Shown piece by piece: positions 5,059 to 39,350 of a stretch of DNA of 39,350 bases. Both the position numbers and the translations under genes were made by a program. This stretch comes from Deltaproteobacteria bacterium (lineage in GTDB: Bacteria; Desulfobacterota; GWC2-55-46): the NCBI GenBank assembly GCA_016234955.1, contig JACRNN010000204.1:1-39350 (forward strand), in the 5' to 3' direction. The stretch's first letter is position 1. Each line of letters opens with the position of its first letter. The notes under the pieces were generated by a model. That model made no database searches. It had not been told where the DNA came from and saw only the letters and a program-made list of their open reading frames with translations.

Positions 5059-6282
5059 TCAGATGATTATCCCGCCCGCCACCGGATACCCGGCGTGTTC
5101 GAGTACGAACCTGCCCGTCTCCGGGATATCCGAGAAGCTGTCCACCGCCACCGGCCTGTCAAGCCTTATCTCCACCTCGGCGACCTCGGCCGGCTTTATC
5201 GTGGACGCGTCGTTTTCGACAATCTCCACCGAGGCCGGGTCGAACCTCCTGTATATCTTCTCGATCCTGCCCTTTACCTCCTGCGTGGCGCACTTGAACG
5301 TGAGAGGGACCCCGAGCTTGTAGTCCTTGTCCACCATCCAGAAGATGTTCGCGCGCACCGAGTCCGTTATAGTCGAAGTCACCGCATCGACGATTATATC
5401 GCCCCTTTTAAGGCCGTCACCCTCTACGCGTATCCCTATGCACTCCGTGGCCTGGGCCTCGGTCAGCCCGTCTTCGAGGAACTTCCTTATCTCAAGCACT
5501 CTCGCGGCAGCCTTGCCTGGCAGGATGAAGACGTCCTGCCCTTTCCTCAGGACGCCTGCCTCCACGCGCCCCACGGCTATCTCGCCGCCGTCCAGGTCGT
5601 ACATGTCCTGCACCGGGAACCTGAGCCCCTTTTCCTCCACCTTCAACGCCCTGAAACTGTCGAGGGCCTGCAGCACCGTAGGGCCCTGATACCAGGAGAG
5701 GTTTTCCGTCTTTTTCGCGACGTTCTCGCCCTTGATGGCCGAGATGGGTATGACGTAAGCGGGGGATATGTTCAGGCGGCCGAGGACCGAGGATATCTCA
5801 TTCTCTATGGACCTGAAGGCCTCCTCGGAGTATCCGGCGAGGTCCATCTTGTTTACGAGCACGGCGACCTGCCTGACGCCGAGGAGCCCGAGTATGTAGC
5901 AGTGCCTCAATGTCTGCTCCCGGATGCCCTGGCTGATGTCCACAAGGAGGATCGCCGCCTCGGCCTGGGAGACTCCGCTTATCATGTTCTTCAGGAACTC
6001 CTTGTGCCCCGGCGCGTCGATAATCACGTACCTCCTCTTTTCGGTTGAGAAGAAGGTATGGGCTATGTCTATGGTTATGCCCCTCTTCCTCTCCTCCTCG
6101 AGGTTGTCCATCATGAACGCGAACTCGACGTCCTTGCCTTGAAGCGTTGACGCCTTTTTTATCTCATCGAGCTTCTCCGGCGGCAGCGACCCTGTGTCAT
6201 AAAAGAGCCTGCCCACGAGCGTGGATTTGCCGTGGTCGACGTGGCCGACTATGACTATATGAAGGGACTTCTCTTCCATCAT
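5059..6282 (-). CDS. cysN: Sulfate adenylyltransferase GTPase subunit, without APS kinase domain
   Basis: [27 protein letters not shown] motifs and EF-Tu-like domains II/III; ends GRFVL...VAGGII; adjacent to cysD. Confidence 0.88.
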
Positions 6283-6360
6283 TCAATCCTCCTCACTCCT
6301 CGACGCCTTGCATCCGAATCTTTTTGAGCAGCCTGAACAACTTGAGTTTCTCGGCAACCC

Positions 6361-7164
6361 CTACATGTACCCGAGCGACCGGAGCTTCTGCATCGTATAT
6401 GCGTCCTCCTTGTCCTGCGCCCTGCCGGCGCGCTCGGAGGTCTTTGTGGTCTTGAGCTCCTCTATTATCTCGTCCACGCTTGAGGCCTGAGACTCGACCG
6501 GGCCGCAGCAGGGCGCGCAACCTATCGACCTGTACCTCTTGCCTTCCTTGCTGAAGTAGAGCTCGGTCACCGGGATATTCTCCCTTTTTATGTACTCCCA
6601 TATGTCGAGCTCGGTCATGTGGAGTATGGGGTGGATTCTGAAGTGGTTGTCCTCTTCGGTGGTGGATTTGAACTGGTCCCATAGCTCGGCCGGCTGGTCC
6701 TCGTAGTTCCATTTGAAGTCCACGTCCCTCGGGGAAAACACCCTCTCCTTCGCCCTTATCCCGTGCTCGTCCCTCCTGATGCCGAGCAGGAGCGCCTTGA
6801 AGCCGCGCCTGGCTATGGTCTGCTTGAGGGCGTTCGTCTTGAGCTCGTTGCAGCAGTCGAGCTTTGCCCCCTTTGAAGGCCCCATGCCGGCGGCCACCTG
6901 GCCCTCGTTGCGCCCGATTATCAGGTCGAGGCCCCACTTCTTCGCGTACTCGTCCCTGAACCTGTACATCTCCGGGAATTTGTAGGTCGTGTCTATATGG
7001 ATGACGGGGAAGGGTATGCGTCCGAAGAACGCCTTCCTGCAGAGCCAGAGGAGCGTCGTCGAGTCCTTGCCCACGGACCAGAGCATGGCGATGTCCCTGA
7101 ACCTGCTGTACGCCTCGCGTATGATGAATATGCTCCTGTTCTCAAGTTCGGTCAGATGGTCCAT
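6361..7164 (-). CDS. cysD: Sulfate adenylyltransferase catalytic subunit
   Basis: LENRSIFIIREA, PP-loop WSVGKDS, HIDTTYKFPE, GIRRDE..RAKER.FSPR, RIHPIL, YRSIGC.PC, SERAGRAQDKE. Confidence 0.93.
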   Translation of the reverse strand: MDHLTELENRSIFIIREAYSRFRDIAMLWSVGKDSTTLLWLCRKAFFGRIPFPVIHIDTTYKFPEMYRFRDEYAKKWGLDLIIGRNEGQVAAGMGPSKGAKLDCCNELKTNALKQTIARRGFKALLLGIRRDEHGIRAKERVFSPRDVDFKWNYEDQPAELWDQFKSTTEEDNHFRIHPILHMTELDIWEYIKRENIPVTELYFSKEGKRYRSIGCAPCCGPVESQASSVDEIIEELKTTKTSERAGRAQDKEDAYTMQKLRSLGYM

Positions 7165-7203
7165 CCAGGTTACCCTCTCCTTTAATCGAATATCATAGTT
7201 TAA

Positions 7204-8565
7204 TCAATTACCCTTGAAATTATCAAGTATTAAATCCGTGAGACGCTCTATATGAAGCCTTTGGGAAGGGTTTACCCCGGCCGGGAGTATGCAGTGCGCG
7301 TCGTGTCTCGTGTGCATGCCCATGAAGTGGGTTCTGCCGAAGACCTCGTTCTTCTTAAGGTTCCCCTTGAGGTCATACCCGTCGTTGCCGACGCAGACCA
7401 GGTCGGGGCCCCGGAGGGCCGCGGGGCCGCTGTATAATTCGCGGTTCTCATAGACCCTTTTTATCACCTTGCTTCCGTCGGTATCGGTCATAGCCTCGAG
7501 CGCGGACCTTATCTCCGCCGCGGTTCTCTCTACATCTTGCTCCTTGACGCTCCCAAAGGGGTATCTCTTCTCCGCGTTGATATATATGCGCGCCGGGTCC
7601 ATGGCAAACGCCCTTGATCCGTCCTCCACCTGCTCGTAGTACTCCCTGCCGGAGTTCAGGGTCAAAAAATTATTTTCCCTCAGCCAGGCGTTGACGTAGA
7701 CCTCTTTTTTTATCGGCGTGAATCCGTGGTCCGACATGGTCATGAAAAACCCCTTGCCGTTGGTCTTTGACATGAAGCGCTCAAAGAGCCTCCCTATGGC
7801 CGAGTCCATCTCCCTGTAGAACGACACGAACCTCTCATGGTACCTGTGGGACGCGTCCCTCGCGGCGTCGAAGAAGAAGTGGTGTATCCTGTCGGTCTCG
7901 GTGATGACGCCTATGAAGAGCCCCCAGTCCGGCTCGTCAAGGTAATGCTCGAAGGCCTCCACGCGCTTCTTTAGAGCTAAAAAGGCGTCGTCGAAGAACT
8001 CATCGGGCTTATCCGCCGCCTTTGCCGCGTCTATGTCCGGCATGTACCCTATGGAACTCAGGTAATCGTAGGCGGCCTCCGGGTACGTCCCCTTCCTGAA
8101 GTCCGGGCAGACGAACCCGGCGGTCAGCACCCCGTTCATGGGCCTTGCCGGAAAGGTCTGCGGGACGTTAAGGACGATAGACCTTACGCCCCTGTTGATG
8201 CTACCCCCGCGCCTCTCAAATAGGGTCGAGGTCTTTGCCCCCGCCGTGCCGCCGAGCATCTCCCAGACCGTTGGGGCCAGGACGTTGTCGAAGCTCGGGA
8301 AGCTCATCCTGTAACTCCCCTCTTTCAGCTCCATGAAGCCGTATATGCCGTGCTCTCCGGGGTTTACCCCCGTCATGAAAGATGCCCATGACGTGGACGA
8401 TACGTCTGGGATAGAGGCGTCCATCTGGTTGAGCGTAAAGCCGCTCGACAGTATGGAGCCTATGTTAGGCAATATGCCCGCCTCCGCGTACTCCTTCATG
8501 AGGGTGTAGGGCGCACCGTCTATGCCTATTACGAATGCCTTTTGTTCATCCATATCAGATGCCAT
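7204..8565 (-). CDS. Alkaline-phosphatase superfamily (nucleotide pyrophosphatase/phosphodiesterase-like) protein, cytoplasmic
   Basis: VIGIDGAP, nucleophile region SIPDVSSTSWASFMTGVNPGEHGIYGF, TDRIHH, MSDHGF, GMH; no signal peptide. Confidence 0.85.
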   Translation of the reverse strand: MASDMDEQKAFVIGIDGAPYTLMKEYAEAGILPNIGSILSSGFTLNQMDASIPDVSSTSWASFMTGVNPGEHGIYGFMELKEGSYRMSFPSFDNVLAPTVWEMLGGTAGAKTSTLFERRGGSINRGVRSIVLNVPQTFPARPMNGVLTAGFVCPDFRKGTYPEAAYDYLSSIGYMPDIDAAKAADKPDEFFDDAFLALKKRVEAFEHYLDEPDWGLFIGVITETDRIHHFFFDAARDASHRYHERFVSFYREMDSAIGRLFERFMSKTNGKGFFMTMSDHGFTPIKKEVYVNAWLRENNFLTLNSGREYYEQVEDGSRAFAMDPARIYINAEKRYPFGSVKEQDVERTAAEIRSALEAMTDTDGSKVIKRVYENRELYSGPAALRGPDLVCVGNDGYDLKGNLKKNEVFGRTHFMGMHTRHDAHCILPAGVNPSQRLHIERLTDLILDNFKGN

Positions 8566-8577
8566 CGTTTCCTTTGA

Positions 8578-10692
8578 TCACCCTTCCTTTTCGATTTTGC
8601 AGAGTAGCCCGCGTAGCTGGTACGAGCCGAACGCCGGGTCATACGGGGGGCCGTTGTCAGTCAGCACGTTGGCGTTCGACTCGAACGCGCCGTATAGAGG
8701 GCCGTCCCTCTCCGGGAACCACCATCCGTGCTCGACGCTCGCCACGCCGGGGTGGATTTCCTCGGTCACAAGGGCCTTCATCCTGATAGCGCCCCTGCGC
8801 GTGGAAACCCTCACCCACTCGCCGTTTGATACCCCGCTCCTCCGTGCCGCGTCCGGGTGGAGTTCCACCTGCGGGTCTGGCCGGAGCCTCCTCAGTGAAT
8901 CCACCTGCCTGTGCTCGCTGTGGAAGAACTCCGGCCTGCGGCTGCCGGTGATGAGTATGAGCGGAAATTCCTCCGCGATATCCGGCGCTGAGACCGGGCC
9001 CTCAGGGGGCTCCTTGAACGTCGGCAGGGGGCCGTAGCCCATCCTCTGCAGCGTCTTTGAATATAGCTCGACCTTCCTTGAAGGGGTTCTGAACCCTTGC
9101 TTCTCATACCTCCTGTACTCATGCGGAGGGAAGATGAAGGTCTTTTTCTTCAAATCATCGAAGTTTACGCCGAGCGGCTCGAGCTGGTGGTTTATCACGT
9201 CCTCGATGGTATCCCAGGCGCCGGGCAGCCCGAGCCTCTTTGACAGCTCGTTCATTATCCACTCGTCCTGCATGGACTCGTGGTGGACGGTTATCCTCTG
9301 CTGCGCCATCACCATGTTCTCAACGACGAGCGGGTACCCGATGGCCTGATCGACCTCTGTCCAGAAGGCCGCGGGCAGGACGTAGTCCGCGTGCGCGGCG
9401 GTCGGGGTCATGAAAAGGTCCGTTACCGCGAGGAGGTCGAGCTTCTTGATGCCCTCGTAGACCTCTTTCGAGTTTGCCACGGACGTTAGCGCGTTGTTGC
9501 CGAATATCAGCAAAGCCCTCACGCGGTAGGGGTCGCCCTCCCTCATGGCCCTGAAGAGCGCGGGGATGTGGGCGGACGGCATGAAGGCCCTCCAGCCCCC
9601 GAGGAGCTTGAACTCATCGGCCCCGAGCCGCTTCTTTAGCGCCCCCTCCGGGAGCTTGTCCTTCAAGGTCGGGTAGCTCCTTATGATGTTCATCCCGAGG
9701 ATGTCCCCGCCGGGAACGTCGAGGTTGCCGGTTATGGCGCGAAGTATGGCGAGCGCCCTCACGGTCTGGAGCGAGTTTGGGTTCTGCTCTATGCCGAGAC
9801 CCCATTCGAGTATGGCGGGCTTATTAAGCGCATAAGTCCTGGCCGCCGTTATTATCGCTGAAGCGGGGACGGTGGTGACGGACCCTGCCCACTCGGGGGT
9901 GAATGGCGCGACGTGGTTTTTAAGCTCCTCGAACCCGGTTGTCCATCTCTCGACGAACTCCCTGTCGTATATCCCCTCGGCGATTATCACGTTTATCATC
10001 GCGAGGGCGAGGGCGGCGTCCGTGCCGGGCCTGACCGGGAGCCACTGGGCGCACCTTCGGGCCGTCTCGCTCCTCCTCGGGTCTACGGAGATCGCCGCGC
10101 ACCCGGTGTCGAGCGCGCGCTTGACCGAAGGCGCTATCTCGCCGTCAGGCCCTGAGACTAACGGGTTGTGGCCCCAGAAAAGGATGCACCGGGGAGAGAC
10201 CTCGCCGTAATAATCGCCGACCACGAAGCCGCCGTAGGTCAGGTTGCTTACGGTTATCCTCGGGATGAAGCACTGCGCAAGGCCCGGTTCGTACCAGTTG
10301 GGGGTGCCGAGCGCGTTAGCGAACCTCACCACGTGCATGTAGTGGTGGCGTCCCGTGCCCTGCCCGATGGCGATGGATTCCGGCCCTGATTCCCCTCTTA
10401 TCCCGTCTATCCTGCCCGCTATCTCGTTCAGCGCGTCGTCCCACGAAAGCCTCTGCCACTGGCCGTCTCCCCTGCCCTTCTTCCTCTTCATCGGGTATTT
10501 GAGGCGGTCCGGGTGGTTTGCTATATCCGGGGACTTCACCCCCTTGACGCACATCCAGCCCCTGTTCATGGGGGAGTCCGGGTCGCCCTTCACGCTTACT
10601 ACGCGCCCGTCCTTTACGTGGACGAATACGCCGCACCCTCCGTGGCAGACCCTGCACACGCTCCTGAATGTCTTTTCGTTGCCGTCGTTCAT
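8578..10692 (-). CDS. Mo/W-bisPGD oxidoreductase, acetylene-hydratase-like branch
   Basis: 704 aa; N-terminal 4Fe-4S motif CRVCHGGC...CVKG, DRLKYPMKR, LFWGHNP, PGTDAALALA, ADYVLPAA, C-terminal molybdopterin-binding domain FFHSEHRQ...VELHP; no Tat signal. Confidence 0.88.
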   Translation of the reverse strand: MNDGNEKTFRSVCRVCHGGCGVFVHVKDGRVVSVKGDPDSPMNRGWMCVKGVKSPDIANHPDRLKYPMKRKKGRGDGQWQRLSWDDALNEIAGRIDGIRGESGPESIAIGQGTGRHHYMHVVRFANALGTPNWYEPGLAQCFIPRITVSNLTYGGFVVGDYYGEVSPRCILFWGHNPLVSGPDGEIAPSVKRALDTGCAAISVDPRRSETARRCAQWLPVRPGTDAALALAMINVIIAEGIYDREFVERWTTGFEELKNHVAPFTPEWAGSVTTVPASAIITAARTYALNKPAILEWGLGIEQNPNSLQTVRALAILRAITGNLDVPGGDILGMNIIRSYPTLKDKLPEGALKKRLGADEFKLLGGWRAFMPSAHIPALFRAMREGDPYRVRALLIFGNNALTSVANSKEVYEGIKKLDLLAVTDLFMTPTAAHADYVLPAAFWTEVDQAIGYPLVVENMVMAQQRITVHHESMQDEWIMNELSKRLGLPGAWDTIEDVINHQLEPLGVNFDDLKKKTFIFPPHEYRRYEKQGFRTPSRKVELYSKTLQRMGYGPLPTFKEPPEGPVSAPDIAEEFPLILITGSRRPEFFHSEHRQVDSLRRLRPDPQVELHPDAARRSGVSNGEWVRVSTRRGAIRMKALVTEEIHPGVASVEHGWWFPERDGPLYGAFESNANVLTDNGPPYDPAFGSYQLRGLLCKIEKEG

Positions 10693-10710
10693 ATTCTCTG
10701 TTTATATATT

Positions 10711-10789: not shown

Positions 10790-10803
10790 CTGAAAATTAC
10801 TAT

Positions 10804-11778
10804 TTATTTACGCCCCCCGCGCGCCACACCCCAGAGCGCCCCGAGCCCGATTGACACGGCTCTCAGAAAAAGCAGCGCCGGAGAGACAACGGCCACTGCC
10901 GGGTCCTTGCGTAAGGCCGTTAGAAAAAAAGGCGTTGACAGGGCGAGAAAAAAGCCCCCCGCCAAAACGAATAGGAGCAACCCGTATGCGGGGAAGAGCA
11001 GGCCCACAGGCAGGCACGCCCCAATCATCATGGCGGCTAATATCTGGAACTTGAGCGTCTGGGGGGTGTATGTGTCCTTGAGCATCTTGTCCGGGAACCT
11101 CTTGTACACGACCATCCTCCAGTACCCCCTCCAGAACTTGAGCCTCGCGTACCTCTTGATCGAGTCCGGGTGGTTGAGGTGGCATACCACGGCCCGCGGG
11201 TTGAAGACCATCCTGTGCCCTGAGCTTGAGAGCCTGTAGGACAGCTCCGTATCCTCGTTGTTGGGCGCCGGAAAGCCCGTGTCAAAGCCGCCCGCCACGT
11301 CAAAGACCTCTTTCCTGAAGGCGGCCGAATAGGTATCGACCATGTCGATGGAGGGGGCCGCCTTCAGCATCTCGAACCTCTCCTCGAACTCGATCTGCGA
11401 GAACCGCGCCACTATGCCTGGCTGTAGAGTCCTGTACGCGCCCTTGACCGCCGAGACCGACGGGTCGGCAAAAGGCCTTGCCATCTCCTTTATCCAGTCG
11501 CTCTCCGGGACGCAGTCCGAGTCGGTAAAGAGGATTATCCCGCCCCTTGCCTCCCTCGCCCCCGCGTTCCTCGCGGCGGCCGGACCGAGGTTTCTCTGCC
11601 GGATGCACTTGACGGAGTAGCCCTTGACGATCAGCGGCGTGGAATCCGTGGATCCGTCGTCCACAACGATGACCTCGTAGCGTCCCTTCCCTACGGTCTG
11701 GTCCCGGAGCGAGCCGAGGCACTTATCTATCGTCCTTGCGGCGTTGTACGCCGGAACTATGACGGAAAACTCTATCAT
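10804..11778 (-). CDS. GT2 family glycosyltransferase with C-terminal TM helices
   Basis: SVIVPAYNA, VVDDGSTD, GPAAARNAG, FTDSDC, NEDTELSYRL; hydrophobic C-terminus. Confidence 0.92.
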   Translation of the reverse strand: MIEFSVIVPAYNAARTIDKCLGSLRDQTVGKGRYEVIVVDDGSTDSTPLIVKGYSVKCIRQRNLGPAAARNAGAREARGGIILFTDSDCVPESDWIKEMARPFADPSVSAVKGAYRTLQPGIVARFSQIEFEERFEMLKAAPSIDMVDTYSAAFRKEVFDVAGGFDTGFPAPNNEDTELSYRLSSSGHRMVFNPRAVVCHLNHPDSIKRYARLKFWRGYWRMVVYKRFPDKMLKDTYTPQTLKFQILAAMMIGACLPVGLLFPAYGLLLFVLAGGFFLALSTPFFLTALRKDPAVAVVSPALLFLRAVSIGLGALWGVARGGRK

Positions 11779-11782
11779 CCGC

Positions 11783-13243
11783 TCACGTGCTCTGGAGCCT
11801 TGAGCCGCGTATCAGGTATTTGGCGAAGGTCCGGAGGGACTTAAGCGTCCTTCTTATCTCCCTCGGGTGCGCTATCATCTGGGATAATTTATAGAGGATA
11901 TAGCCCGGCCTCAGATAGAACTCCCTCCTCGCGTCGTCGCAGAACCTGACAAGCTCCTCGGCGCTCAACTCCTCTGTCCTTATGACGGTATTGTGGAGCC
12001 CCTCCTGGGTTATCCATTCGGAGAAGTCCGAGCTCCTTATGAGGCCCCTCTGCCTGTACCAGTCGTACGCCTCGGTGCCGGGGTAAACCATCACCGGGTA
12101 GAACTGGACGGTATCGGGGTTGAGGCCCTTTGCGAGGTCGAGGGTCTGCTTGAGCGTCTGCCTCGTCTCGCCGGGGAGCCCGGCCATGAAGCATCCGTGT
12201 ATGAGCATACCGGCCCTCCTGGCGTTGTCCATGAACCCCTTCATCTCCGCGACCTTCGTCTTCTTCTTCATGTTGTCGAGTATCGTCTGGCTACCGCTCT
12301 CAAAGCCGACGCAAAGGGAGCGGCACCCGGCCTCTCTCATCAGGCGCATGGTGTCGTAATCTATCCCTATCCTCGAATTCGCCGTCCAGGATATCTTTAT
12401 CCCCTTCTTGATTATCAGCTCGGACAGGGCCCTGCACCTCTTCTTGTCCACCGTAAGGGTGTCGTCCTCGAAAAAGACCGCCTTTGCCTGTGGGAAGTTC
12501 TCGACGATGTACTCCATCTCCTCCACCACGTTCTCAACGGACCTCAACCTGTAGCCCCTGCCCATGAGCGTCTGAGGGTAGACGCAGAATGTGCACGGGA
12601 ACGGGCACCCCCTGCTCGTCGTTATCGTCACCATCGGGAATAGCGCGTTCGGGTTGAAGTAGTTCTCTATGCGCAAGAACTTCCTGTAGACCTTGCTCAC
12701 GAACGGCAGTGTGTCGAGGTCGTCGAGGAACGGCCTTTTGGGGGTATTGACGAGGGAGCCGTCCTTGAGGTAGCTTATGCCGGGCACGATTCTAAAGTCC
12801 CCTTTTTTCTCAAGCGCTCCGGCTACCTCCACCACGGTCTGCTCGTACTCGTAGCGCGCAACGGCGTCGATCCTCTTGTCGAGCTTGAGCGTCTCTGCCG
12901 GGAGCGCCGAGACGTGTGTGCCAACGAGGAGCACGAACGCCGACGGGCGCTCGTCCTTGAGGCGGCCTCCCACAGCGACGTCGTTATTGATAGACGGCGT
13001 GGAGGTGTCCATCACTATGAGGCCGGGGTTGAAGACTCTCGCCCTCTTAACGACGTCCTCTACGGTCAATCCGTCGGCCGGCGCGTCTATGAAGTCGACC
13101 TCGAAGCCCTTGTCCATGGCCGCGCCCGCGGCGTAGGCGAGCCACATCGGGAAGTAGAGCGTCCCGCTCTTTGTGACGGCCGGGCTCCTCTGCGGCCGGG
13201 AGAACTTCTTCAGAAACGGCGGGTTCAAAAACAGTATCTTCAT
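11783..13243 (-). CDS. Cobalamin-binding radical SAM enzyme, HpnJ-like
   Basis: MKILFLNPP..., YFPMWLAYAA, DTSTPS, RGCPFPCTFC, FFEDDT, VGFESG, GCFMAGLPGET, YPGTE. Confidence 0.88.
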   Translation of the reverse strand: MKILFLNPPFLKKFSRPQRSPAVTKSGTLYFPMWLAYAAGAAMDKGFEVDFIDAPADGLTVEDVVKRARVFNPGLIVMDTSTPSINNDVAVGGRLKDERPSAFVLLVGTHVSALPAETLKLDKRIDAVARYEYEQTVVEVAGALEKKGDFRIVPGISYLKDGSLVNTPKRPFLDDLDTLPFVSKVYRKFLRIENYFNPNALFPMVTITTSRGCPFPCTFCVYPQTLMGRGYRLRSVENVVEEMEYIVENFPQAKAVFFEDDTLTVDKKRCRALSELIIKKGIKISWTANSRIGIDYDTMRLMREAGCRSLCVGFESGSQTILDNMKKKTKVAEMKGFMDNARRAGMLIHGCFMAGLPGETRQTLKQTLDLAKGLNPDTVQFYPVMVYPGTEAYDWYRQRGLIRSSDFSEWITQEGLHNTVIRTEELSAEELVRFCDDARREFYLRPGYILYKLSQMIAHPREIRRTLKSLRTFAKYLIRGSRLQST

Positions 13244-19472: not shown

Positions 19473-19536
19473 GAGTTGCCCTGCCCTGTCTGGATGCGGA
19501 GATATGAAGCCTACGGGGATTTCAGAATCCACTGGA

Positions 19537-31999: not shown

Positions 32000-32733
32000 T
32001 TGGCTGGAAAAAGGCAAATCGATACCGGGCAGCTTACTAACTTTGAAGGGTTAGAGAACGACAACTCCACCGCCGTTTGACGCCCGGCCAGCTTCTCGAT
32101 GCAATGAAAAGCCTCCGGCAGGCGGTCCTTTATGCTTCCGGCCCTGTGGGTGTCGCTCGCCAGTATATGCGCAAGGTTGTTTTTAACCAGCGCCTTCACC
32201 GCGCCCTTGACCTTCCTGCCGTACTCGCCGAGCAGGCTGCCGGCGTTTATCTGCACAAGCACTCCCCTGTCCACGAACTCCTTGACGGCCGTATAATCCC
32301 TTATGACCTCGTCGCACCTCTCCGGATGGCACCAGATAGGGGTTATGCCCGAAGTCATCAGCTTGAAAAAGACGTCATGGGCGTACATGGGTATGTCATA
32401 TGGAGGGAACTCTATCAACGCGTACTTCCCCATGCCGTTTATCGTGAGCCTCCTGTCGGAGAGCACCGCCGGCAGGTCGTGGCTGAACCAAAGCTCAGCC
32501 CCGAGGGCTATGGCTATGCCGATATTCCTGGCGGCCACAGCCTCCTGAAGCTCCTTGAAGAGGCAGGCCACTCTATCGAGGTCCATGCCGCTATACGGGA
32601 AGTGCGGGGTCAGGACCACCCCCCTGACCCCGGCCTCAGCCGCCTCTTTCATTATTACGAGGGACTCGCCCAGGTCCCCGGCGCCGTCGTCCACGCCGGG
32701 AAGGATGTGGGTATGTATGTCGAAAAATTCCAT
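31996..32733 (-). CDS. CpsB/CapC PHP-family tyrosine phosphatase
   Basis: DIHTHILPGVDDGA, LTPH, GAE, HPER, QINAGS, LASDTH. Confidence 0.93.
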   Translation of the reverse strand: MEFFDIHTHILPGVDDGAGDLGESLVIMKEAAEAGVRGVVLTPHFPYSGMDLDRVACLFKELQEAVAARNIGIAIALGAELWFSHDLPAVLSDRRLTINGMGKYALIEFPPYDIPMYAHDVFFKLMTSGITPIWCHPERCDEVIRDYTAVKEFVDRGVLVQINAGSLLGEYGRKVKGAVKALVKNNLAHILASDTHRAGSIKDRLPEAFHCIEKLAGRQTAVELSFSNPSKLVSCPVSICLFPAK

Positions 32734-32758: not shown

Positions 32759-34954
32759 CTACTTGTACTGCTGATAATAATAGTAGTAGGAATGCCTGCT
32801 GGTGGAGACCTTGTTCAGAGCGGCGCCTATAACGTTTATCCCCGCCTTGGTAAACAGTTCCATGATATCGGCGATATGCTTTTTCTTGGCCTTGCCGCTC
32901 TCTATCACCAGGATGACCCCGTCTGCGGCCCTGCCTAATATCACGGCGTCGCTGGCCGCCAGGATCGGCGGGGAATCGATGATCACAAGGTCGTATGCCT
33001 CTTCCATGTCCTTTATCAGCTGGTGCATCTTCTTTGACTCGACGAGCCTGGCGGGGTCCGGCGGGATAGGCCCCGTGGGGATTATGCTCAACCCCTCCAC
33101 GCCGCTGTCCAGACGGACGGCGTTTTCATCCGCCTCACCCACGATGAAGCTGGTAAGCCCGATCGTCCTGGGCACGTTGAAATATACGGTGATCCCCGGC
33201 CTTCTCAGGTCGCCGTCTATCAGAAGCACCTTCTTGCCTTCGGTGGCCGCCTGTATGGCGAGGTTCGAGGCGAAGAAGCTCTTGCCCTCGTCCTGCACAG
33301 AGCTTGTCACAACGATGCTCTTTGGCGGTTTGTCGGTGGTGGCGAACCTTATGCTGTTACGTATGGTCCTCAAGGACTCCCTGATGGGCGACCTCGGGTC
33401 CGCCTCGTTGATGAGCTTAGGCTCCTTTTTCTTCAACATGAAGACGCTTCCGAGGTAGGTAAGGTGCTTTACGGCCTTGACGTCATCGGAGGTGCAGACG
33501 GAATCGTCGAGGTATTCTATCAGGAGGGCCGCGCCCATCCCGAAAGGCGCGCCGAGGACTATCGCTATGATCGTATTGAGAAAGAGGTCCGGGTGCCTGT
33601 GCTTGGAGTCGTTCCTGTCGTGGACTATCGCCGGCTCCACGATGTATATGCTTGAGACCGCCATGGATTCGGCCATGCCCATCTGGTAGCGGTACTTCAG
33701 CATGGAGTTGTATATGTCCTGCGTGACGTTCACCGAGAGTTGGAGCTGGGCGTAATCCGCCGACTTCCTCGGCAGGGTCATCAACTCGCGCTCATACTTC
33801 TTTATGATTACCGGCAGGGCCTGGTTCTGGCTCTCAAGCGAGGCCATGTCCACGTAATATCCGGCGAGTTTTACCGAGACGTCCTGGTAGACCGGGTCTA
33901 TGCCCACGGTCTCGCTGCCGAATATCTTCTTGAGCTCCTTGTCGAGCAGGTCCTTTGACTCGTTGATCTTGTTCCGTATGTCTATAACGGCGGGGTGCTC
34001 GCCGGTGTATTTCGTCCGCGACTCGGCAAGGCTCAGGTAAAGGTCCCTCAGCGTGACCTTGAGGTTCAGGACCATCTCGTTGTCCTTCATCTGTTCGGAG
34101 GTCTTCTGGTACTTGGGGATGGCGCTCAACTGGGACTCGGCCCTGGATATCGACGCCCTGTCCTTGAAGATGGCGACGTTGTTGTCGGAGACCTGCTTCC
34201 TGTAGTCCGATATCCTCTGCAGGAGGTTCGTCGTCTCGGTATCGAGGTTTACGGTCTGCTCCTTCTCCTTGTAGTCCTTGAGCTCCTTTAGCGCGTTCTG
34301 GTATTCAGCCCTGGTCCTCTCTATGTTGGCCTCTATGAATTTGGAGACGCCCTTGTAGTCCTCCCTTACCCTCTTCAATTCGTCTCTGATAAAGGCATCG
34401 GCCATCTTGTTCGCCAGGGCGGCCGCCTGGACATTGTCCGGTGAAACCGCCTCTATTTCAATAAGGTCCGTCGATTCGTTCTGTTCGAAGTCGACGTGCG
34501 GCCTCGGTAATATCATGGCGAGGACGGAGGAGTCGAGCAGGTCGTCGGCCGTCATGACCTCTTCGGTCGACTCCACGTTGACGCCGAGGAGGCGCAGAAA
34601 AGGCCTCAAGAGGGGGATCGCCTTCATTATCCGCGCCCTTGTCCTCTCCCTCGTGACCTTGAGCTCGGATACGACCCTCTCGGCCACGGGCCTCACTCCG
34701 GCGAGGGCAAGGTAATCGGCCCTGTCGGTGTCGGTTAAGGCGGTGGTGGAGGAAGTCCCTGAGCTCTGCAACCCTATGCTTGAGAGGATGGAAGAAGAGG
34801 CCGCGGACCTGCGCAACAGCACCTGCGCGGTCGCGTCATACCACGGCGTTATTAAAAGCGAGCCGGTGACTATCGTGAGGAAGACGGCAAAAAACAGGAT
34901 TATAGCCGTCCACCTCCTCCTCCAGAGGATTTCGAGAATATGTCTAAGTTCCAT
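32759..34954 (-). CDS. wzc: Wzc polysaccharide co-polymerase / tyrosine autokinase
   Basis: Two TMs with a coiled-coil periplasmic region; Walker A SSVQDEGKS, LLIDGDLRRP, IIDSPP; C-terminal Tyr cluster SYYYYYQQY. Confidence 0.94.
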   Translation of the reverse strand: MELRHILEILWRRRWTAIILFFAVFLTIVTGSLLITPWYDATAQVLLRRSAASSSILSSIGLQSSGTSSTTALTDTDRADYLALAGVRPVAERVVSELKVTRERTRARIMKAIPLLRPFLRLLGVNVESTEEVMTADDLLDSSVLAMILPRPHVDFEQNESTDLIEIEAVSPDNVQAAALANKMADAFIRDELKRVREDYKGVSKFIEANIERTRAEYQNALKELKDYKEKEQTVNLDTETTNLLQRISDYRKQVSDNNVAIFKDRASISRAESQLSAIPKYQKTSEQMKDNEMVLNLKVTLRDLYLSLAESRTKYTGEHPAVIDIRNKINESKDLLDKELKKIFGSETVGIDPVYQDVSVKLAGYYVDMASLESQNQALPVIIKKYERELMTLPRKSADYAQLQLSVNVTQDIYNSMLKYRYQMGMAESMAVSSIYIVEPAIVHDRNDSKHRHPDLFLNTIIAIVLGAPFGMGAALLIEYLDDSVCTSDDVKAVKHLTYLGSVFMLKKKEPKLINEADPRSPIRESLRTIRNSIRFATTDKPPKSIVVTSSVQDEGKSFFASNLAIQAATEGKKVLLIDGDLRRPGITVYFNVPRTIGLTSFIVGEADENAVRLDSGVEGLSIIPTGPIPPDPARLVESKKMHQLIKDMEEAYDLVIIDSPPILAASDAVILGRAADGVILVIESGKAKKKHIADIMELFTKAGINVIGAALNKVSTSRHSYYYYYQQYK

Positions 34955-34984: not shown

Positions 34985-35755
34985 CTATTTGGCCGGGATG
35001 GAAAGCGGCGTCGTGGCGCCGTCCTTGCCCGTAAGGACGTTCTGGACCTGCGGCCACAGCACTATCCCGCTCTCCAGGTTCACTACAGGCGAAAGTATCT
35101 TGCCCAGGTGCGAGAAGTACCAGCTGACGTCCGCTATCGTCACCGACGGCACGTAGACGATGTCCCCGCCGCGTATAGGACTGTTTTCAGCCTTCGCATT
35201 GCCGGCGAGCAGGCTTGAGATGTTGACGGATTTAACCTCGGCCTTCTCTCCCGCGCGCCTTATCAAAAGCACGTTCTCGAGCTTCGCGTCCAGGGTGGCC
35301 CCGCCCGCCTTGGCGATGGCCTCCATCATGGTCACGCTGGAATCCACCGTGAACACGCCGGGGCTGTTTACCTGGCCGAGCACCATCACCTTTTGGCTCT
35401 GGACGGTTGATACGTTGATGGTTATCTGCGGGTCCTTGAGGTACTTCGAGAGCCTCGCGGTCATATCGTCCCTGAGCTTGAAGATGGACATGCCGCCGGC
35501 CTGCACGTCCCCTATCAGCGGGAACATTATCTTGCCGCCCGTGTCTATCTTGAGCGTCCTATGCAGGTCGTCGTTCCTGTATATCGTTATATCGACCGTA
35601 TCGCCGGGGCCGAGGATGAACTCGGAAATCCTTACCTCCTCTATCGGCGGCTTCTCCTCCTTCTCATCGACCTTGACCGGCGCGGAGGCGCACCCGGCGA
35701 GAACGACCATTATAAATACCAGGCCGATATGGATTGTCCCTTTTAGATATTTCAT
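34985..35755 (-). CDS. wza: Wza-like polysaccharide export lipoprotein
   Basis: Start at ATG 35755, lipobox LAG-C; ILGPGD, GKIMFPLIG, YLKDPQITI, VLGQVNSPG, SLBB domain, GDIVYVP. Confidence 0.9.
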   Translation of the reverse strand: MKYLKGTIHIGLVFIMVVLAGCASAPVKVDEKEEKPPIEEVRISEFILGPGDTVDITIYRNDDLHRTLKIDTGGKIMFPLIGDVQAGGMSIFKLRDDMTARLSKYLKDPQITINVSTVQSQKVMVLGQVNSPGVFTVDSSVTMMEAIAKAGGATLDAKLENVLLIRRAGEKAEVKSVNISSLLAGNAKAENSPIRGGDIVYVPSVTIADVSWYFSHLGKILSPVVNLESGIVLWPQVQNVLTGKDGATTPLSIPAK

Positions 35756-35787
35756 ATGTACGCACCCTTTCATGCCGCAACGCGCTT

Positions 35788-36948
35788 TCACAGCTTCACC
35801 ATTACCTTGCATTCGTTCCTGTTTACGGAGGCCTTGAGCGCCTCTATCGCGCCGTCGAAGGGGAACCTCCTGGAGATCATGGGAGAGGGGTCGAGCCTCC
35901 CGCGGGAAATGAGGCTTATGATGTTCGGGAATATGCCGTACCCCGCGTGCCCCCTTGCCCCCACTATCCTGTTCGCGCCTGATACAAGCCGGTCCAGATG
36001 CATGGGTGTGCTTGCGGCCGCCCGTCCGAGATATATGATCCTGCCCTGGCTGGCCATCGACCTCTCCATCTCCGGTATCGTGAGAGGGGCGGCCCCGGCG
36101 GCCTCGACCTGCACCCCGGCCCCCTCTCCCCGTGTAAGCTCCATGACCTTATCCGACGGGCTCTGTCCGCCCAGCCCCCTTGAATTGAAGGCGTAATCGG
36201 CGCCCATGCGCCTTGCGGCCTCCACCCTGCCGTCATAGACGTCGAAGGCTATTATAAGGGACGCGCCGCAGACCCTTGCAAGGGCTATGGCCCCGAGCCC
36301 TATGGGGCCGGCGCCGTGCACCACGACGGTCGCGCCGGGGAGGAACCCCCCCCCGGCCACGAAGATCCCGTTATACGCGCACCCTATCGGCTCGATAAGC
36401 GCGCCGATGTCGAAGATATCCTCCTCGGGGTACGCCTCCCTCAACCCGTCTATCTTCCAGCAGTACCTCTCGTTGACGGCTACGTACTCGGCGATGGCCC
36501 CGTTAACGCTCAGGCCCAGGAGCTCCACGTTCTCGCACTGGTTCGGCGCCCCGCCCCTGCATGAGCGGCAAAGGCCGCACCACATTACGCTCTCCACGGC
36601 CACAAGGTCGCCCTTTTTAAGGTTCGCGGCCTTTCCGCCGGTCTCCTCCACCACCCCGGAGAACTCGTGGCCGAGTATGCACGGGAACCTGGCCAGACCC
36701 GAAAAGAGTATATACCCGTCTCCGTCCGTCTCGTACAGATGGGTGTCGGAGCCGCAGACCCCGCATGATTTGACGCGGATGAGCACCTCGGTGTCCTCGG
36801 GCGCCGGCGCCGGGGTCTCTCTTATCTCGAAGACCGGGTCCTTCCAGACCTTGCTCCCGACCAACGCCCTCCTGCTCGCGCTCTCCCGCGCGCTCAAGGG
36901 GTAGCCCTCCCTCGGCTTCCACTGCGCGTCGACGAAAAGCGCCTTCAT
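35788..36948 (-). CDS. Zn-dependent dehydrogenase, scyllo-inosose 3-dehydrogenase (IolM)-like
   Basis: CGVCGSD, GHEFSG, CGLCRSC...NQC, GAGPIG. The segments W.PR...GSKVW.P, TD..GYIL..GL..FP and GARGHAGYGIFP match Thermotoga IolM as I recall it. Start at 36948 (ATGA overlap). Confidence 0.8.
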   Translation of the reverse strand: MKALFVDAQWKPREGYPLSARESASRRALVGSKVWKDPVFEIRETPAPAPEDTEVLIRVKSCGVCGSDTHLYETDGDGYILFSGLARFPCILGHEFSGVVEETGGKAANLKKGDLVAVESVMWCGLCRSCRGGAPNQCENVELLGLSVNGAIAEYVAVNERYCWKIDGLREAYPEEDIFDIGALIEPIGCAYNGIFVAGGGFLPGATVVVHGAGPIGLGAIALARVCGASLIIAFDVYDGRVEAARRMGADYAFNSRGLGGQSPSDKVMELTRGEGAGVQVEAAGAAPLTIPEMERSMASQGRIIYLGRAAASTPMHLDRLVSGANRIVGARGHAGYGIFPNIISLISRGRLDPSPMISRRFPFDGAIEALKASVNRNECKVMVKL

Positions 36949-38456
36949 GCGCACTCCATCTCAAGCGCCTTTTTGTTTATCTTGCCGCTCCCGGTCTTAG
37001 GAAGCTCGTTCCTGAACTCTATTATCCTCGGGACCTTGTAGTGCGGGAGCCGGGCCCTGCAGAACTTGAGTATATCTTTTTCCGTGACGGCCCTGAAACC
37101 CTTCAAGGCTATTATCGCCTTGGGCACCTCGCCCCTCAGGTAATCCTTCGCCGCTATCACGGAGACCTCCTTGACGTCGGGGTGCTCAAGGAGCGCCGCC
37201 TCTATTTCAGCGGGGTAGACCTTGAGCCCGGCCACCTTCATCATTCCGGTCCTTCTCTCGACGAAGTAGAAGTTCCCGTCCTTGTCCTTCCTGCCGAGGT
37301 CGCCGCTCCGGTACCAGCCGTCCCTGAAAGGGTCCTTGTCCGCGGTGACTTCCTCGTAGTACGAGCCTACGACGCCGGGGCCCCTGAAAATCATCTCCCC
37401 GACCTCTCCCGGCGGCAGCTCCCGCCCGTTCTCATCGACTATCCGCACTTCATAGGAGCGGCACGGCCTTCCGATGGAGCCTGGGATTATCTTCTCCCCG
37501 AAGCGGTTGGCTATCGCTATGCCGGTAGTCTCGGTGCTCCCCCACACCGGTATGATATCCGCGCCGAGCTTCTTCCTGAAGGCCCGGATGAGTTCCTGGC
37601 GCGTGTACATGCCGCCGCTCTCCGGTATCCTCAGGGAGCTCAGGTCATAGGTCCTGTATTCGAGGAGCTCAAGGAGGTTCTCGTACATCGGGGCAAGCCC
37701 CATGACGCACGTCACCCCGTGCCTTGAGACGGCCTCGGCGAGCGATTTAGGCGATATCCTGTCGACAAGCACCATCGTCCCGCAAAGGTATAGCGCCCTG
37801 GCGAATATCTCGTGAGGGTGCGCGAACGGCGCGAACATGCAGAGATGGACGTCGGAGGCGGTGAGCGCGAGCGCGTCCACGGAGGCGAGCGTGTTCCAGT
37901 ATATGTTGGCGTGCGTAGTTACCGCGCCCTTTGATTCCCCGGTCGAGCCGGAGGTGTAGTTCAGGTATACGGGGTCGTCCGCCTTTATGTCAAGGGATGG
38001 GGCGGCGGGCGCGCCGGTGAAGGGCAGGTCGTTGAGCGAGAGCCGCCCCTCGACCTCTGCGTCCGAGACTATGACCTTGACATCGAGGCCCGGGCAGAGC
38101 GAGACGGCCTGGTCGGCCAACGGCAGGAAGGAGCTGTGCACCAGGAAGGCGCGCGGGGTTATGGCCATGAGTATCGCGGATATCTTCTCGGCGTTGAGCT
38201 CGAAGTTGACCGGGGCGGCCAGCGCCGCGGCCTTGGCCGCCGCCAGAAAGCCCATTACAAGCTCGGGGACCCTCGGCATCATCATGGCGACCCTGTCGCC
38301 CCTCCCGACGCCGAGGCCGATCAGCCCTCCGGCAAGCCCGTTTACCCGCCGGTCGAGGGCCGAGTACGATATCCTCTCGTCGTAATATAATATCGCGTCC
38401 TTCTCAGGCTCAGAGAGGGCGTTTTTCTCGATCATCTCAACAAGCGTCATTTCCAT
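36945..38456 (-). CDS. AMP-forming acyl-CoA ligase (class I adenylate-forming enzyme)
   Basis: YTSGSTGESKG, WGSTET, YRSGDLG, KVAGLKVYPAEIE, GEVPKA, LPKTGSGKI. Confidence 0.92.
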   Translation of the reverse strand: MEMTLVEMIEKNALSEPEKDAILYYDERISYSALDRRVNGLAGGLIGLGVGRGDRVAMMMPRVPELVMGFLAAAKAAALAAPVNFELNAEKISAILMAITPRAFLVHSSFLPLADQAVSLCPGLDVKVIVSDAEVEGRLSLNDLPFTGAPAAPSLDIKADDPVYLNYTSGSTGESKGAVTTHANIYWNTLASVDALALTASDVHLCMFAPFAHPHEIFARALYLCGTMVLVDRISPKSLAEAVSRHGVTCVMGLAPMYENLLELLEYRTYDLSSLRIPESGGMYTRQELIRAFRKKLGADIIPVWGSTETTGIAIANRFGEKIIPGSIGRPCRSYEVRIVDENGRELPPGEVGEMIFRGPGVVGSYYEEVTADKDPFRDGWYRSGDLGRKDKDGNFYFVERRTGMMKVAGLKVYPAEIEAALLEHPDVKEVSVIAAKDYLRGEVPKAIIALKGFRAVTEKDILKFCRARLPHYKVPRIIEFRNELPKTGSGKINKKALEMECA

Positions 38457-38533
38457 CGCGTCATCCAGGGTGTATTGAGCCGCCTGACGGTCATCCGAAA
38501 AGGCCCGTCGACAAGCATAGCGAGCTGAGAATT

Positions 38534-39349
38534 TTAATAGGCGCCGGCTTTTTGAAAGACGACCTTTACCGTCTTGAACAGGATTTTGAGGTCGAGCCAG
38601 AGCGACTGGTTCTTCACGTAATCGACGTCATAGCGTATCCAGTCGTGGAACGAGGCCTCGCTCCTGCCCTGTACCTGCCAGAGGCCGGTTACGCCGGGCT
38701 TCACCTTGAGCCTGATCGACCTCCAGCTCGGGCTGAACTTCATCTCGTCCATTACAAGGGGCCTGGGTCCCACGAGGCTCATCTCGCCGCGCAGGACGTT
38801 TATGAGCTGCGGCAGCTCATCAAGGCTGGTCTTTCTGAGCTTCTCCCCGATGCGCGTCACCCGCGGGTCGTTGAAGAGCTTGAACATCGGGCCGTCGACG
38901 TTTTTTTCGGCGACGAGTTTTTGCTGGAGAGAGGGGGCGTCCTTGACCATGGTCCTGAATTTGTACATCACGAAGTCCCTGCCGTCCTTCCCGCACCGTT
39001 TCTGGCTGAAGACGCACGGCCCCTCGGAATCGCGCTTTATCATGGCGCAGATAAGAAGCATCACGGGCGAAAGGAGCGCGAGGAGGACGGCGGAGGCCAA
39101 TATGTCCATAAGCCTCTTGGTAAAGAGGAAGGCCTTGTGTTTTAAACTCCCGAAGTTGAGCTTGAGGGACTCGGTAACTCCCCTGAGCTGGTACCTCGAC
39201 GGCACGAGATTCAAGTCCCCGAGCCTCAAGTCCTCCACCACTATCTTGTTCTCGAATTCATCCTCCGAGCACACCCTCACCCCCCTGCCGGCGATGCAGT
39301 ACTTGAGTGAGGAATCCTCCTCCATCTCGCACCCGTCAAGCAGGATGCT
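38534..39349 (-). CDS. Priming phosphoglycosyl (sugar) transferase, 5'-truncated, probably with an N-terminal fused domain
   Basis: KRLMDI, FSQKRCGKDG, YKFRTM, DPRVTRIG..LRKTSLDELPQL.NVL.GEMSLVGPRP, KPGVTGLWQV. Frame is open to the window edge. Confidence 0.93.
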   Translation of the reverse strand, partial: SILLDGCEMEEDSSLKYCIAGRGVRVCSEDEFENKIVVEDLRLGDLNLVPSRYQLRGVTESLKLNFGSLKHKAFLFTKRLMDILASAVLLALLSPVMLLICAMIKRDSEGPCVFSQKRCGKDGRDFVMYKFRTMVKDAPSLQQKLVAEKNVDGPMFKLFNDPRVTRIGEKLRKTSLDELPQLINVLRGEMSLVGPRPLVMDEMKFSPSWRSIRLKVKPGVTGLWQVQGRSEASFHDWIRYDVDYVKNQSLWLDLKILFKTVKVVFQKAGAY

Positions 39350-39350
39350 C

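Follow-up and report, generated by a model that had tools for sequence, protein, structure and literature searches.

What does a bacterium make with a polysaccharide exporter whose genes are interspersed with those of radical S-adenosylmethionine (SAM) enzymes, a molybdenum/tungsten (Mo/W) enzyme and acyltransferases, and do these genes belong together at all? The question is raised by contig JACRNN010000204.1 of a Deltaproteobacteria metagenome-assembled genome (MAG; 2.08 Mb in 299 contigs, estimated completeness 79%), the entire 39,350 nucleotides of which are the window analysed here (contig C174; in our labels G stands for genomes, L for loci or stretches and C for contigs). From 5059 to 39350 the window carries 25 contiguous open reading frames (ORFs; non-nested, at least 90 aa), all on the minus strand. 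A first-pass annotation of the same DNA had counted 26 genes, and the intergenic gaps, of at most 187 bp, are too short for another one. Families were called with Pfam and NCBIfam and solved relatives by PDB match; all the families that had been named earlier were confirmed, the hydrolase by a weak sub-threshold match and CysN below its cut-off. Our answer is that the window probably holds one example of a type of Wzx/Wzy-dependent surface-glycan locus that is conserved among anaerobes and moves horizontally, and we think it likely, from the gene families and their linkage, that the locus works as one functionally linked glycan-tailoring system. The export machinery is of a known kind. The tailoring set is not described, and we found no published account of this gene combination in the full-text literature searched, a body that leaves most subscription journals outside and yielded ordinary exopolysaccharide papers at most.

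The linkage between tailoring and export genes extends well beyond the window. As a marker we used rSAM_C (20942..22447; PF04055 and PF02310), one of the B12-binding radical SAM proteins. A first scan with it returned seven true relatives among eight loci, and in all seven rSAM_C and rSAM_B were followed by an LpxL-like acyltransferase gene. A profile scan then gave 172 confirmed matches, the best 80 of which were kept; 52 of these loci (L005, L006, L008, L009 and L029-L076, from about 49 genomes) form the group to which the window belongs and the other 28 are a paralogue. Orthologues of rSAM_C with at least 48% identity occur in 48 of the 52 related loci. Within flanks of 10 kb on each side, and with many loci on short contigs, the census of the 52 found rSAM_B at 42, an LpxL-like acyltransferase at 40, a GT9 glycosyltransferase at 21, the PF01663 enzyme AlkP2 at 17, a DUF362 protein at 14 and an HpnJ-like radical SAM at 11. 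A Wzx, Wzy, Wza, Wzc or PGT gene was present at 29 of them, and at 23 of the 32 that had at least 15 kb of sequence. Genes for Wzy_C and Wzx proteins, a carbamoyltransferase with SxtJ, GT2, an AlgX-like protein and a SPASM radical SAM, once more glycan genes, are recurrent extra neighbours. The rSAM_C/D paralogue family (L077-L104, 36-43% identity) comes from MAGs labelled Myxococcota, Alphaproteobacteria, 'Enterobacterales' and others, and no locus genes were found in the flanks of these 28 loci except for two weak Sulf-like matches.

Compared locus by locus, the same set of genes is found in differing order in distant lineages, so that tailoring genes and export core form one conserved neighbourhood. 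With ACL for the acyl-CoA ligase, AT for acyltransferases, Mo for the Mo/W enzyme and HpnJl for the HpnJ-like radical SAM, genome G003 reads PGT-ACL-Mo-Wza-Wzc...AlkP2-AT-AT2-rSAMs-AT1-GT9-DUF362-HpnJl-GT2, and G004 reads PGT-ACL-Mo-HpnJl-GT2-x-DUF362-Wza-Wza-Wzc...Wzx...AT2-rSAM_D-C-B. G009 and G021 keep nearly the order of the window, including a fused PGT and cysDN, and G019 has the locus in two parts on one contig. A cultured, non-pathogenic carrier, the gammaproteobacterium Marichromatium gracile DSM 203, has HpnJl-GT2-Mo-PGT-ACL-IolM...AlkP2-AT2-rSAM_D-C-B-GT9-AT1 on one contig. Presence and absence follow the same pattern: among 41 relatives, rSAM_C occurs in seven, Mo in nine, DUF362 in ten and the IolM-family dehydrogenase in eight, all confined to the same ten genomes. 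In a 401-genome sample of the phylum, searched for Mo and rSAM_C, seven genomes have rSAM_C, 14 have Mo and six have both (Fisher p = 3.7e-9, the relatives in the sample not being independent). Searching outward from either gene, a Mo orthologue of 59-93% identity was found in 10/10 genomes reached through rSAM_C loci, and an HpnJ-like orthologue in 5/5 genomes reached through Mo loci. The first-pass annotation had proposed that the tailoring genes and the exporter are one unit, a view that failure to co-occur in other genomes would have refuted; they do recur together, in shuffled order, beside Wzx, Wzy, Wza and Wzc genes, and that refutation fails.

Inside the window the genes are also tightly packed. 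All six stop/start overlaps that had been pointed out before are real and of ATGA type, as judged with start codons backed by homologue alignments: DUF362/HpnJ-like at 13243, rSAM_C/rSAM_B at 20942, rSAM_D/rSAM_C at 22444 (start ATG 22447), Wzx/AlkP2 at 26643, CpsB/Wzy at 31996 (ATG 31999) and ACL/IolM at 36945 (ATG 36948). The overlap is 4 nt long at five of these sites and 1 nt at 13243. Three more, GT9/DUF362, AT2/rSAM_D and IolM/Wza, bring the total to nine. A terminator scan showed minus-strand terminator-like sites inside the locus to be weak and no commoner than in shuffled sequence. Independent operons could still have come to lie side by side on one strand by chance, given that five intergenic gaps of 105-187 bp leave room for internal promoters and that the three genes at the 3' end, AlkP1-cysDN, are autonomous. 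Yet the same gene set returns, rearranged, in M. gracile and in MAGs whose labels span four phyla or more, and its members are jointly present or absent in the 41 relatives and in the 401-genome sample, which contradicts chance for modules B, C and D (defined below) and the export core and makes this explanation very improbable. One of the gaps, the 111 bp between GT2 and the Mo/W gene (10693-10803), contains an inverted repeat that is perfect over 11 bp, has GAAA as its loop and lacks a T-tail, possibly an RNA-processing or attenuation element.

The locus is modular. Module B consists of the HpnJ-like, GT2 and Mo genes, with or without DUF362; module C of three radical SAMs, the acyltransferases, AlkP2 and GT9; and module D of the ACL-IolM pair. 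The idea of a single system stands as far as the conserved linkage of tailoring and export genes goes, and falls as far as it implied an indivisible unit: the modules can be separated, and the locus is built from them as a mosaic. The most persistent adjacency is GT2-Mo, and the Mo gene adjoins PGT in cable bacteria and Wza in magnetotactic Nitrospirota. ACL and IolM are paired in G009, G016, G019, G021, G028, G036, L046, L050, L069 and M. gracile. In Ca. Kuenenia hertensis (L115 4400-12127), GT2-Mo comes after genes for a UDP-sugar pyrophosphorylase of eukaryote type (PF01704) and for a Memo-like protein (PF01875), and no HpnJ-like gene is nearby; this minimal context may help to define the substrate of the Mo enzyme.

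Module B holds the most unusual enzyme of the locus. The Mo/W-bisPGD protein (8578..10692; PF04879, PF00384 and PF01568) resembles acetylene hydratase of Pelobacter acetylenicus more than any other solved structure (PDB 2e7z, E 6.5e-116, 391 bits over its full length, as against 288 bits for thiosulfate reductase and 240 for FdhF). Its PF04879 [4Fe-4S] domain begins at residue 6 and leaves no room for a Tat signal, so that the enzyme should be cytoplasmic, and Pfam and NCBIfam searches of the window proteins found no gene for a partner subunit in the locus. It thus shares with acetylene hydratase a single subunit, a cytoplasmic location, the N-terminal cluster and a cysteine ligand. We take the roles in acetylene hydratase to be those of a catalytic Asp beside the second cluster Cys, a Cys that binds the metal, a Lys and Trp residues. 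The alignment with 2e7z shows conservation of the metal-ligand Cys (Cys141), of the Lys close to the cluster and of two of the Trp residues, while the flanking Ile residues are Gly and Phe; C13-R-x-C16-H17-G-G-C20, K50 and C141-F142 are invariant in 9/9 orthologues. What differs from acetylene hydratase is a His in place of the Asp and a gene setting that is biosynthetic rather than catabolic. The Mo clade numbers roughly 600 matches; the best 120 database clusters all have at least 66% identity and bear only generic names. A sister clade at 50-55% identity (L146-L183) comes from MAGs labelled Alpha-, Beta- and Gammaproteobacteria and Thermoleophilia, and at these loci we found neither glycan genes nearby nor conserved neighbours, hence no hint of function.

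The other members of module B point to a rearranged sugar. The B12-binding-domain radical SAM encoded at 11783..13243 (PF02310 and PF04055, CPFPCTFC at residue 213) has its best NCBIfam match in the HpnJ model, TIGR03471, and its next-best in BchE (191.6 bits). HpnJ and archaeal Cds are proposed to turn a lipid-bound hexose ring into a cyclopentitol by contraction (PMC13459092). The adjoining GT2 (10804..11778; PF00535, 119.5 bits) is membrane-anchored through C-terminal hydrophobic segments at 242-316, and its PDB matches include the minimal membrane GT2 6yv7. Upstream, the stop codon of a DUF362 protein fused to a 2x[4Fe-4S] ferredoxin (13243..14484; PF04015, 158.1 bits, and Fer4, in a 13-sequence alignment) overlaps the HpnJ-like start codon. 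According to PMC11770544, DUF362 belongs to Pfam clan CL0471 together with the LarA N-domain; LarC is encoded in the genome, and an ESM Atlas search with the DUF362 protein returned solely DUF362+Fer4 clusters.

Could these genes simply belong to the hopanoid side-chain pathway that makes the bacteriohopanetetrol cyclitol ether, and lie beside an exopolysaccharide (EPS) operon with no part in it? No other NCBIfam model comes near the HpnJ match of 423.5 bits, and GT2 adjoins the HpnJ-like gene as hpnI adjoins hpnJ (PMC13459092). That score, however, is below the cut-off of the model, none of the best 120 homologues (all at least 67% identical, with generic names) is named HpnJ, and squalene-hopene cyclase was found neither in the window's own genome (79% complete) nor in 4/5 other carriers, three of them 96-100% complete, G036 being the positive one. 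We therefore reject the ordinary hopanoid interpretation of the HpnJ-like/GT2 pair, which is already contradicted and hardly credible. The pair does share with HpnI-HpnK-HpnJ and Cds a GT2 gene adjoining a B12-binding radical SAM gene whose best match is HpnJ; it differs from the former by the lack of an HpnK deacetylase and of a hopanoid context as well as by its sub-cut-off score, and from both by the addition of the DUF362-ferredoxin, the W/Mo enzyme and a polysaccharide export setting.

Three further radical SAM genes stand in tandem in module C, so that the window encodes four B12-binding radical SAM proteins, with a CxxxCxxC motif in each. rSAM_D (22444..24045; PF04055 and PF02310, CPHKCSYC) is 43% identical to rSAM_C, and rSAM_B (19671..20945), which comes after rSAM_C in the gene orders compiled for the related loci, is nearest to the methylase-type families BzaD and TIGR04072 (TIGR04385 294.6 bits and TIGR04072 239.8 bits, both sub-cut-off). 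The radical SAM proteins match AprD4 and TsrM in the PDB, TsrM being the best match of rSAM_B. Around them lie two acyltransferases of the LpxL/PatA family, AT2 (24035..25024; PF03279, 77.1 bits, all NCBIfam equivalogs below cut-off) and AT1 (16824..17759; PF03279, 67.5 bits, at 29 of the 52 loci). Both match at the Pfam family level only, with best lipid-A equivalog scores of 37-46 bits against cut-offs of at least 248, and the sole PDB matches of AT1 are the acyl-CoA-dependent PatA acyltransferases of phosphatidylinositol mannosides. They have the PF03279 fold and the N-terminal hydrophobic segment of PatA and LpxL-LpxM, but their genes belong to a Wzx/Wzy locus, where radical SAM genes adjoin them, and they score far below the equivalog cut-offs. 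The module also contains AlkP2 (25036..26646; PF01663, 147.7 bits), which has no signal peptide and is predicted to be cytoplasmic, a GT9 glycosyltransferase (14468..15643; PF01075, 108.9 bits, heptosyltransferase models sub-cut-off) and, between AT1 and GT9, a putative alpha/beta hydrolase (15749..16636; sub-threshold Peptidase_S15 match, E 2.7e-4; orthologues at 12 of the 52 loci).

In module D, the acyl-CoA (AMP-forming) ligase ACL (36945..38456; PF00501, 261.6 bits) has its best NCBIfam match, 373 bits and sub-cut-off, in a long-chain-fatty-acid-CoA ligase, and overlaps an IolM-family Zn-dependent dehydrogenase (35788..36948), which with 521.9 bits clears the NF041097 cut-off of 450. No iol genes were found in the window; the neighbours of the IolM-family gene are ACL, coupled through ATGA, and Wza. 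An acyl substituent is plausible because ACL stands in the same locus as two acyltransferases whose solved relatives are only PatA, and a cyclitol substituent is plausible because the HpnJ-like radical SAM and the IolM-family dehydrogenase are two independent homologies that suggest one. That the chemistry is specifically that of a cyclitol is a narrower claim, and we consider it doubtful.

Modules B and C might instead make a separate membrane glycolipid, cyclitol-ether or acylated and perhaps the anchor of the polymer, with export genes lying next to them since the two products are used together. HpnJ and Cds, the only enzymes studied so far for a reaction of this proposed kind, have lipid-linked sugars as substrates (PMC13459092); the GT2 has C-terminal membrane segments and a weak match to PF13506, the ceramide-glucosyltransferase family (36.4 bits); the PatA relatives of AT1 acylate a glycolipid; and in some genomes modules B and C lie away from export genes. 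Set against this, Pfam and NCBIfam found no gene for acyl carrier protein, KAS, or glycerol or polyprenyl enzymes in the window, the Wzx/AlkP2 (26643) and IolM/Wza overlaps tie export to tailoring genes, and in G003 the Mo gene sits between ACL and Wza. Such a glycolipid is in our judgement a rather unlikely product, and we favour the decoration of a repeat unit.

The nature of that polymer is suggested by the export core. The window has three sugar transferases (Bac_transf, GT2 and GT9), a count on which Pfam and NCBIfam agree with the first-pass annotation. The first of them is the phosphoglycosyl transferase (PGT) domain at the right end (38534..39350; PF02397, 232.7 bits; TIGR03025, 292.7 bits), the C-terminal part of a priming enzyme whose N-terminal part, a sugar-1-phosphate nucleotidyltransferase with an LbH (hexapeptide) region, is on another contig, C237 (L004 91-1029). 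That contig repeats the last 91 bases of the window, exactly and in frame, and in G009, G019 and G021 the frame is contiguous; on these grounds the sequences indicate a nucleotidyltransferase::PGT fusion. The orthologue in G019 is a single fused ORF of 587 aa whose N-terminus resembles Arch_glmU and which scores 296.7 bits to TIGR03025, just above the cut-off of 295.55. Downstream come a short Wza-type OPX lipoprotein of 275 aa (34985..35812; PF02563, 72.2 bits, and SLBB; candidate lipobox ..LAGC), a PCP-2a tyrosine autokinase Wzc (32759..34954; TIGR01007, 181.4 bits against a cut-off of 108; C-terminal YYYYY), a CpsB/CapC phosphotyrosine phosphatase of PHP type (31996..32733; PF19567, 182.3 bits), a polytopic Wzy_C-family membrane protein (30479..31999; PF04932, 34.0 bits against a cut-off of 31.7; 11 hydrophobic segments) and the flippase Wzx (26643..28073; PF01943, 65.2 bits; 13 hydrophobic segments). 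This is the only Wza/Wzc/Wzx/Wzy set found in the genome.

The Wzy_C domain is common to polymerases, ligases and O-oligosaccharyltransferases, and the sequence of the 30479..31999 protein alone does not separate a polymerase, for which it is our candidate, from a ligase. Its match is marginal, and GT9 and LpxL-family genes are typical of lipopolysaccharide (LPS) assembly, so the product could also be a glycan of the O-antigen or of the LPS core, or one O-linked to protein, with the Wzy_C protein acting as a WaaL-type ligase or a PglL-type oligosaccharyltransferase. But the Wzc with its tyrosine cluster, the CpsB phosphatase and the OPX protein are hallmarks of capsule and EPS export, and the genome has its housekeeping LPS genes on other contigs, with six other GT9 paralogues in an LPS-core-like cluster on C73 and an LpxL-like gene on C118; we regard such a glycan as decidedly unlikely. 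The core resembles the Wzx/Wzy capsule and EPS pathways of E. coli (group 1, colanic acid) and Myxococcus xanthus (EPS) in its PGT, Wzx, Wzy_C protein, Tyr-tailed Wzc, OPX and phosphotyrosine phosphatase; the OPX protein is short like EpsY of M. xanthus, whose model it matches with 84 bits. The window departs from these pathways in having three glycosyltransferase-type genes against about 16 tailoring genes, a PGT fused to a nucleotidyltransferase and a phosphatase of the PHP (CpsB) type, and its four B12-radical SAMs, W/Mo enzyme and DUF362 protein have no counterpart in any described pathway turned up by our searches.

Several of our observations weigh against a single tailoring system, or against the chemistry that we assign to it. 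Nine of the 32 long rSAM_C loci show no export gene in their 10-kb flanks. In G009 and G021, modules B and D and export genes stand without an rSAM_C orthologue; Mo and HpnJ-like genes, but no rSAM_C at E<=1e-100, were found in Ca. Kuenenia hertensis, in Ca. Electronema and in a Nitrospira MAG (three of the five Mo-bearing genomes tested at that threshold); in Ca. Electrothrix laxa Mo, HpnJ-like and rSAM_C genes are hundreds of kb apart; and DUF362 was not found in M. gracile. On the side of the chemistry, His17 (CHGGC) replaces the catalytic Asp of acetylene hydratase in 9/9 Mo/W orthologues, the 423.5 bits of the HpnJ-like protein fall short of the TIGR03471 cut-off of 577.6, and GT2 has no match to the HpnI model at E<=1e-5. 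At the 3' end, seven relatives hold an AlkP1-CysD-CysN trio without Mo or rSAM_C, and a search of the 79%-complete genome found no PF00685 or PF13469 sulfotransferase. Finally, a sister MAG of the same genus (G001, L013), whose proteins are 82-96% identical to those of the window across the locus, lacks cysN, keeps a cysD remnant of about a quarter of its length (17415-17681) and has a DUF362 gene broken by stops or a frameshift (L013 10226-11430); these losses are either decay of accessory parts or MAG assembly errors.

The trio is an autonomous add-on at the 3' end of the locus, and the earlier placing of CysDN among the integral tailoring enzymes is not borne out. It consists of AlkP1, a second cytoplasmic PF01663 enzyme (7204..8565; 138.7 bits) and the first gene of the three, CysD, the sulfate adenylyltransferase small subunit (6361..7164; NF003587, 354.7 bits against a cut-off of 195), and a CysN-like GTPase subunit without an APS-kinase domain (5059..6282; TIGR02034, 318 bits against a cut-off of 336.1), which scores higher to an EF-1-alpha model, also sub-cut-off. 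An APS kinase is encoded elsewhere in the genome (C95:6036-6503). Among the 41 relatives CysD occurs in 14 and AlkP1 in 16, and AlkP1 adjoins cysD in all 13 relatives holding cysD. Where the trio occurs free of the locus (L194-L197), a CE4 polysaccharide deacetylase gene lies just upstream in two of the four cases examined (L194 and L196). The trio may add sulfate. A dedicated CysD/CysN pair ending a glycan locus is reminiscent of glycan sulfation supplied by NodPQ/CysDN; the window differs in that no classical sulfotransferase was found, CysN has no kinase domain and a PF01663 enzyme is the constant partner. Because this enzyme stands beside cysD in every genome holding it, and a search of the window's genome gave no classical sulfotransferase, the trio suggests an undescribed use of APS.

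How did such a locus come to be so widely scattered? Taking phylum labels from the submitters' titles, the carriers are Thermodesulfobacteriota/'Deltaproteobacteria', Nitrospirota, Planctomycetota (including Brocadiaceae) and Nitrospinaceae, with Smithellaceae, Desulfarculales and Desulfovibrionaceae among the further labels. In the window's own order the locus is patchy, being present in seven to ten of the 41 genomes. The Mo, HpnJ-like and rSAM_C proteins keep identities of 70-79% across labelled phyla. In a quick tree of the Mo enzyme, the locus-associated clade is cleanly split (support 100) from a second clade that lacks this context and comes from MAGs labelled Pseudomonadota and Actinomycetota; within the locus-associated clade, labelled phyla are interleaved. 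These cross-phylum identities and the interleaving make the pattern compatible with horizontal spread of the locus. The GC content of the locus, 58.1%, is the same as that of the genome, 57.4%.

The borders of the locus are of different kinds. At the 3' end, directly after cysN, lies a tRNA-Arg(CCT) gene (4865-4941, minus strand) with a near-consensus promoter-like site of its own (TTGACA-17-TAAATT, 4990-4962) and a strong hairpin terminator with a 13-bp stem (4856-4827); it marks the 3' border. In the same-genus MAG, too, this tRNA gene comes after what is left of cysD (L013 17852-17928), and the site may be a hot spot of insertion and deletion for this end of the locus. The left flank beyond it encodes a HD/ACT-domain protein (2-1747) and a XerC/D-type tyrosine recombinase (1740-2654) on the plus strand, and a 271-aa ORF (2958-3773) and a NapC/NirT tetrahaem cytochrome (4168-4680) on the minus strand, with a small ORF in 3774-4167 that looks Lrp/AsnC-like by eye only. 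At the other end, position 39350 is an assembly break. Public contigs from 4/4 runs of one study extend past it, and from 36500 to 39350 the contigs of these runs show many single-base variants and short fragmented pieces, which indicates several co-existing strains and probably explains the break. The locus begins on C237, since the N-terminal part of the priming enzyme is there. Upstream of the fused priming gene, C237 carries on the minus strand a beta-barrel porin of BBP2/OmpL type (L004 1889-3109; PF07642, 240.9 bits) and, beyond it, an AcrB/HlyD/OEP efflux set with a TetR regulator (3955-10322). Short OPX proteins can partner beta-barrel porins in composite OPX/beta-barrel translocons, and by analogy the BBP2 porin could be the partner of the short OPX protein; no such porin was seen next to the loci of G009, G019 and G021, and we do not claim it as a part.

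Two more genes of the window are accessory. One encodes a secreted YVTN beta-propeller protein (28149..30326) with weak NCBIfam beta-propeller matches and an N-terminal signal-like segment, a homologue of which occurs in three of the 52 related loci. The other encodes a lipoprotein of sulfatase fold (17811..19550; PF00884, 153.6 bits; lipobox ..VNGC), likewise at three of the 52; with AlkP1 and AlkP2 it brings the proteins of alkaline-phosphatase fold in the window to three. In this protein the C/S-x-P-x-R sulfatase maturation motif was not found, and TLPSF, with a Thr, stands at the expected place when the sequence is read by eye; with Thr for Cys/Ser and no motif, we reject a true formylglycine sulfatase.

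Gene families, linkage, conservation and modularity are what we observe, and from the families a pathway can be proposed. A repeat unit of at most about three sugars would be built on polyprenyl phosphate, started by the nucleotidyltransferase::PGT enzyme and extended by GT9 and the membrane GT2, the latter adding a hexose or hexosamine. The HpnJ-like enzyme would then contract the ring of the sugar added by GT2 through a radical rearrangement of HpnJ/Cds type, giving a carbocyclic (cyclitol) residue, with electrons from the translationally coupled DUF362-ferredoxin, and the W/Mo enzyme would also act on that residue, in a hydration, hydroxylation or redox step that needs no oxygen. ACL would activate a carboxylic acid to an acyl-CoA for O-acylation by the two PatA-like transferases, the IolM-family dehydrogenase would catalyse the oxidation or reduction of a polyol or cyclitol, the three tandem B12-radical SAMs would methylate or rearrange unactivated carbons, and the cytoplasmic PF01663 enzymes may move or remove phospho- groups (for AlkP1, sulfo- or adenylyl- groups are possible too). 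Decoration in the cytoplasm would precede flipping by Wzx, polymerisation by the Wzy_C protein and export by Wzc and the short OPX protein, with the CpsB phosphatase. The oxygen-sensitive chemistry that the first-pass annotation expected is matched by the cofactor set: four radical SAM clusters, a Mo/W-bisPGD centre with [4Fe-4S], and a 2x[4Fe-4S] domain.

The boldest form of this proposal is that the HpnJ-like enzyme, GT2, the His-variant W/Mo enzyme and the DUF362-ferredoxin make a cyclitol-type repeat-unit residue, and that the three B12-radical SAMs then C-methylate or rearrange this residue or the acyl groups, yielding a new class of non-hydrolysable surface polysaccharide, tailored without oxygen. 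We put it forward tentatively, as a proposal that may well prove wrong. Were it true, the class would be common to anammox bacteria, cable bacteria, magnetotactic Nitrospirota, sulfate reducers and one purple sulfur bacterium, and it would give the first biosynthetic role to an enzyme of acetylene-hydratase type and the first HpnJ/Cds chemistry outside lipids. It would also provide a first functional context for several large orphan families, namely the W/Mo clade, the sister family of HpnJ, the DUF362-ferredoxins and the cytoplasmic PF01663 enzymes. With M. gracile DSM 203 as a cultured carrier the hypothesis is directly testable, and what it would reveal is an undescribed surface polymer in many environmentally important anaerobes, among them relatives of anammox, cable, magnetotactic and sulfate-reducing bacteria, made by a chemistry never reported for glycans.

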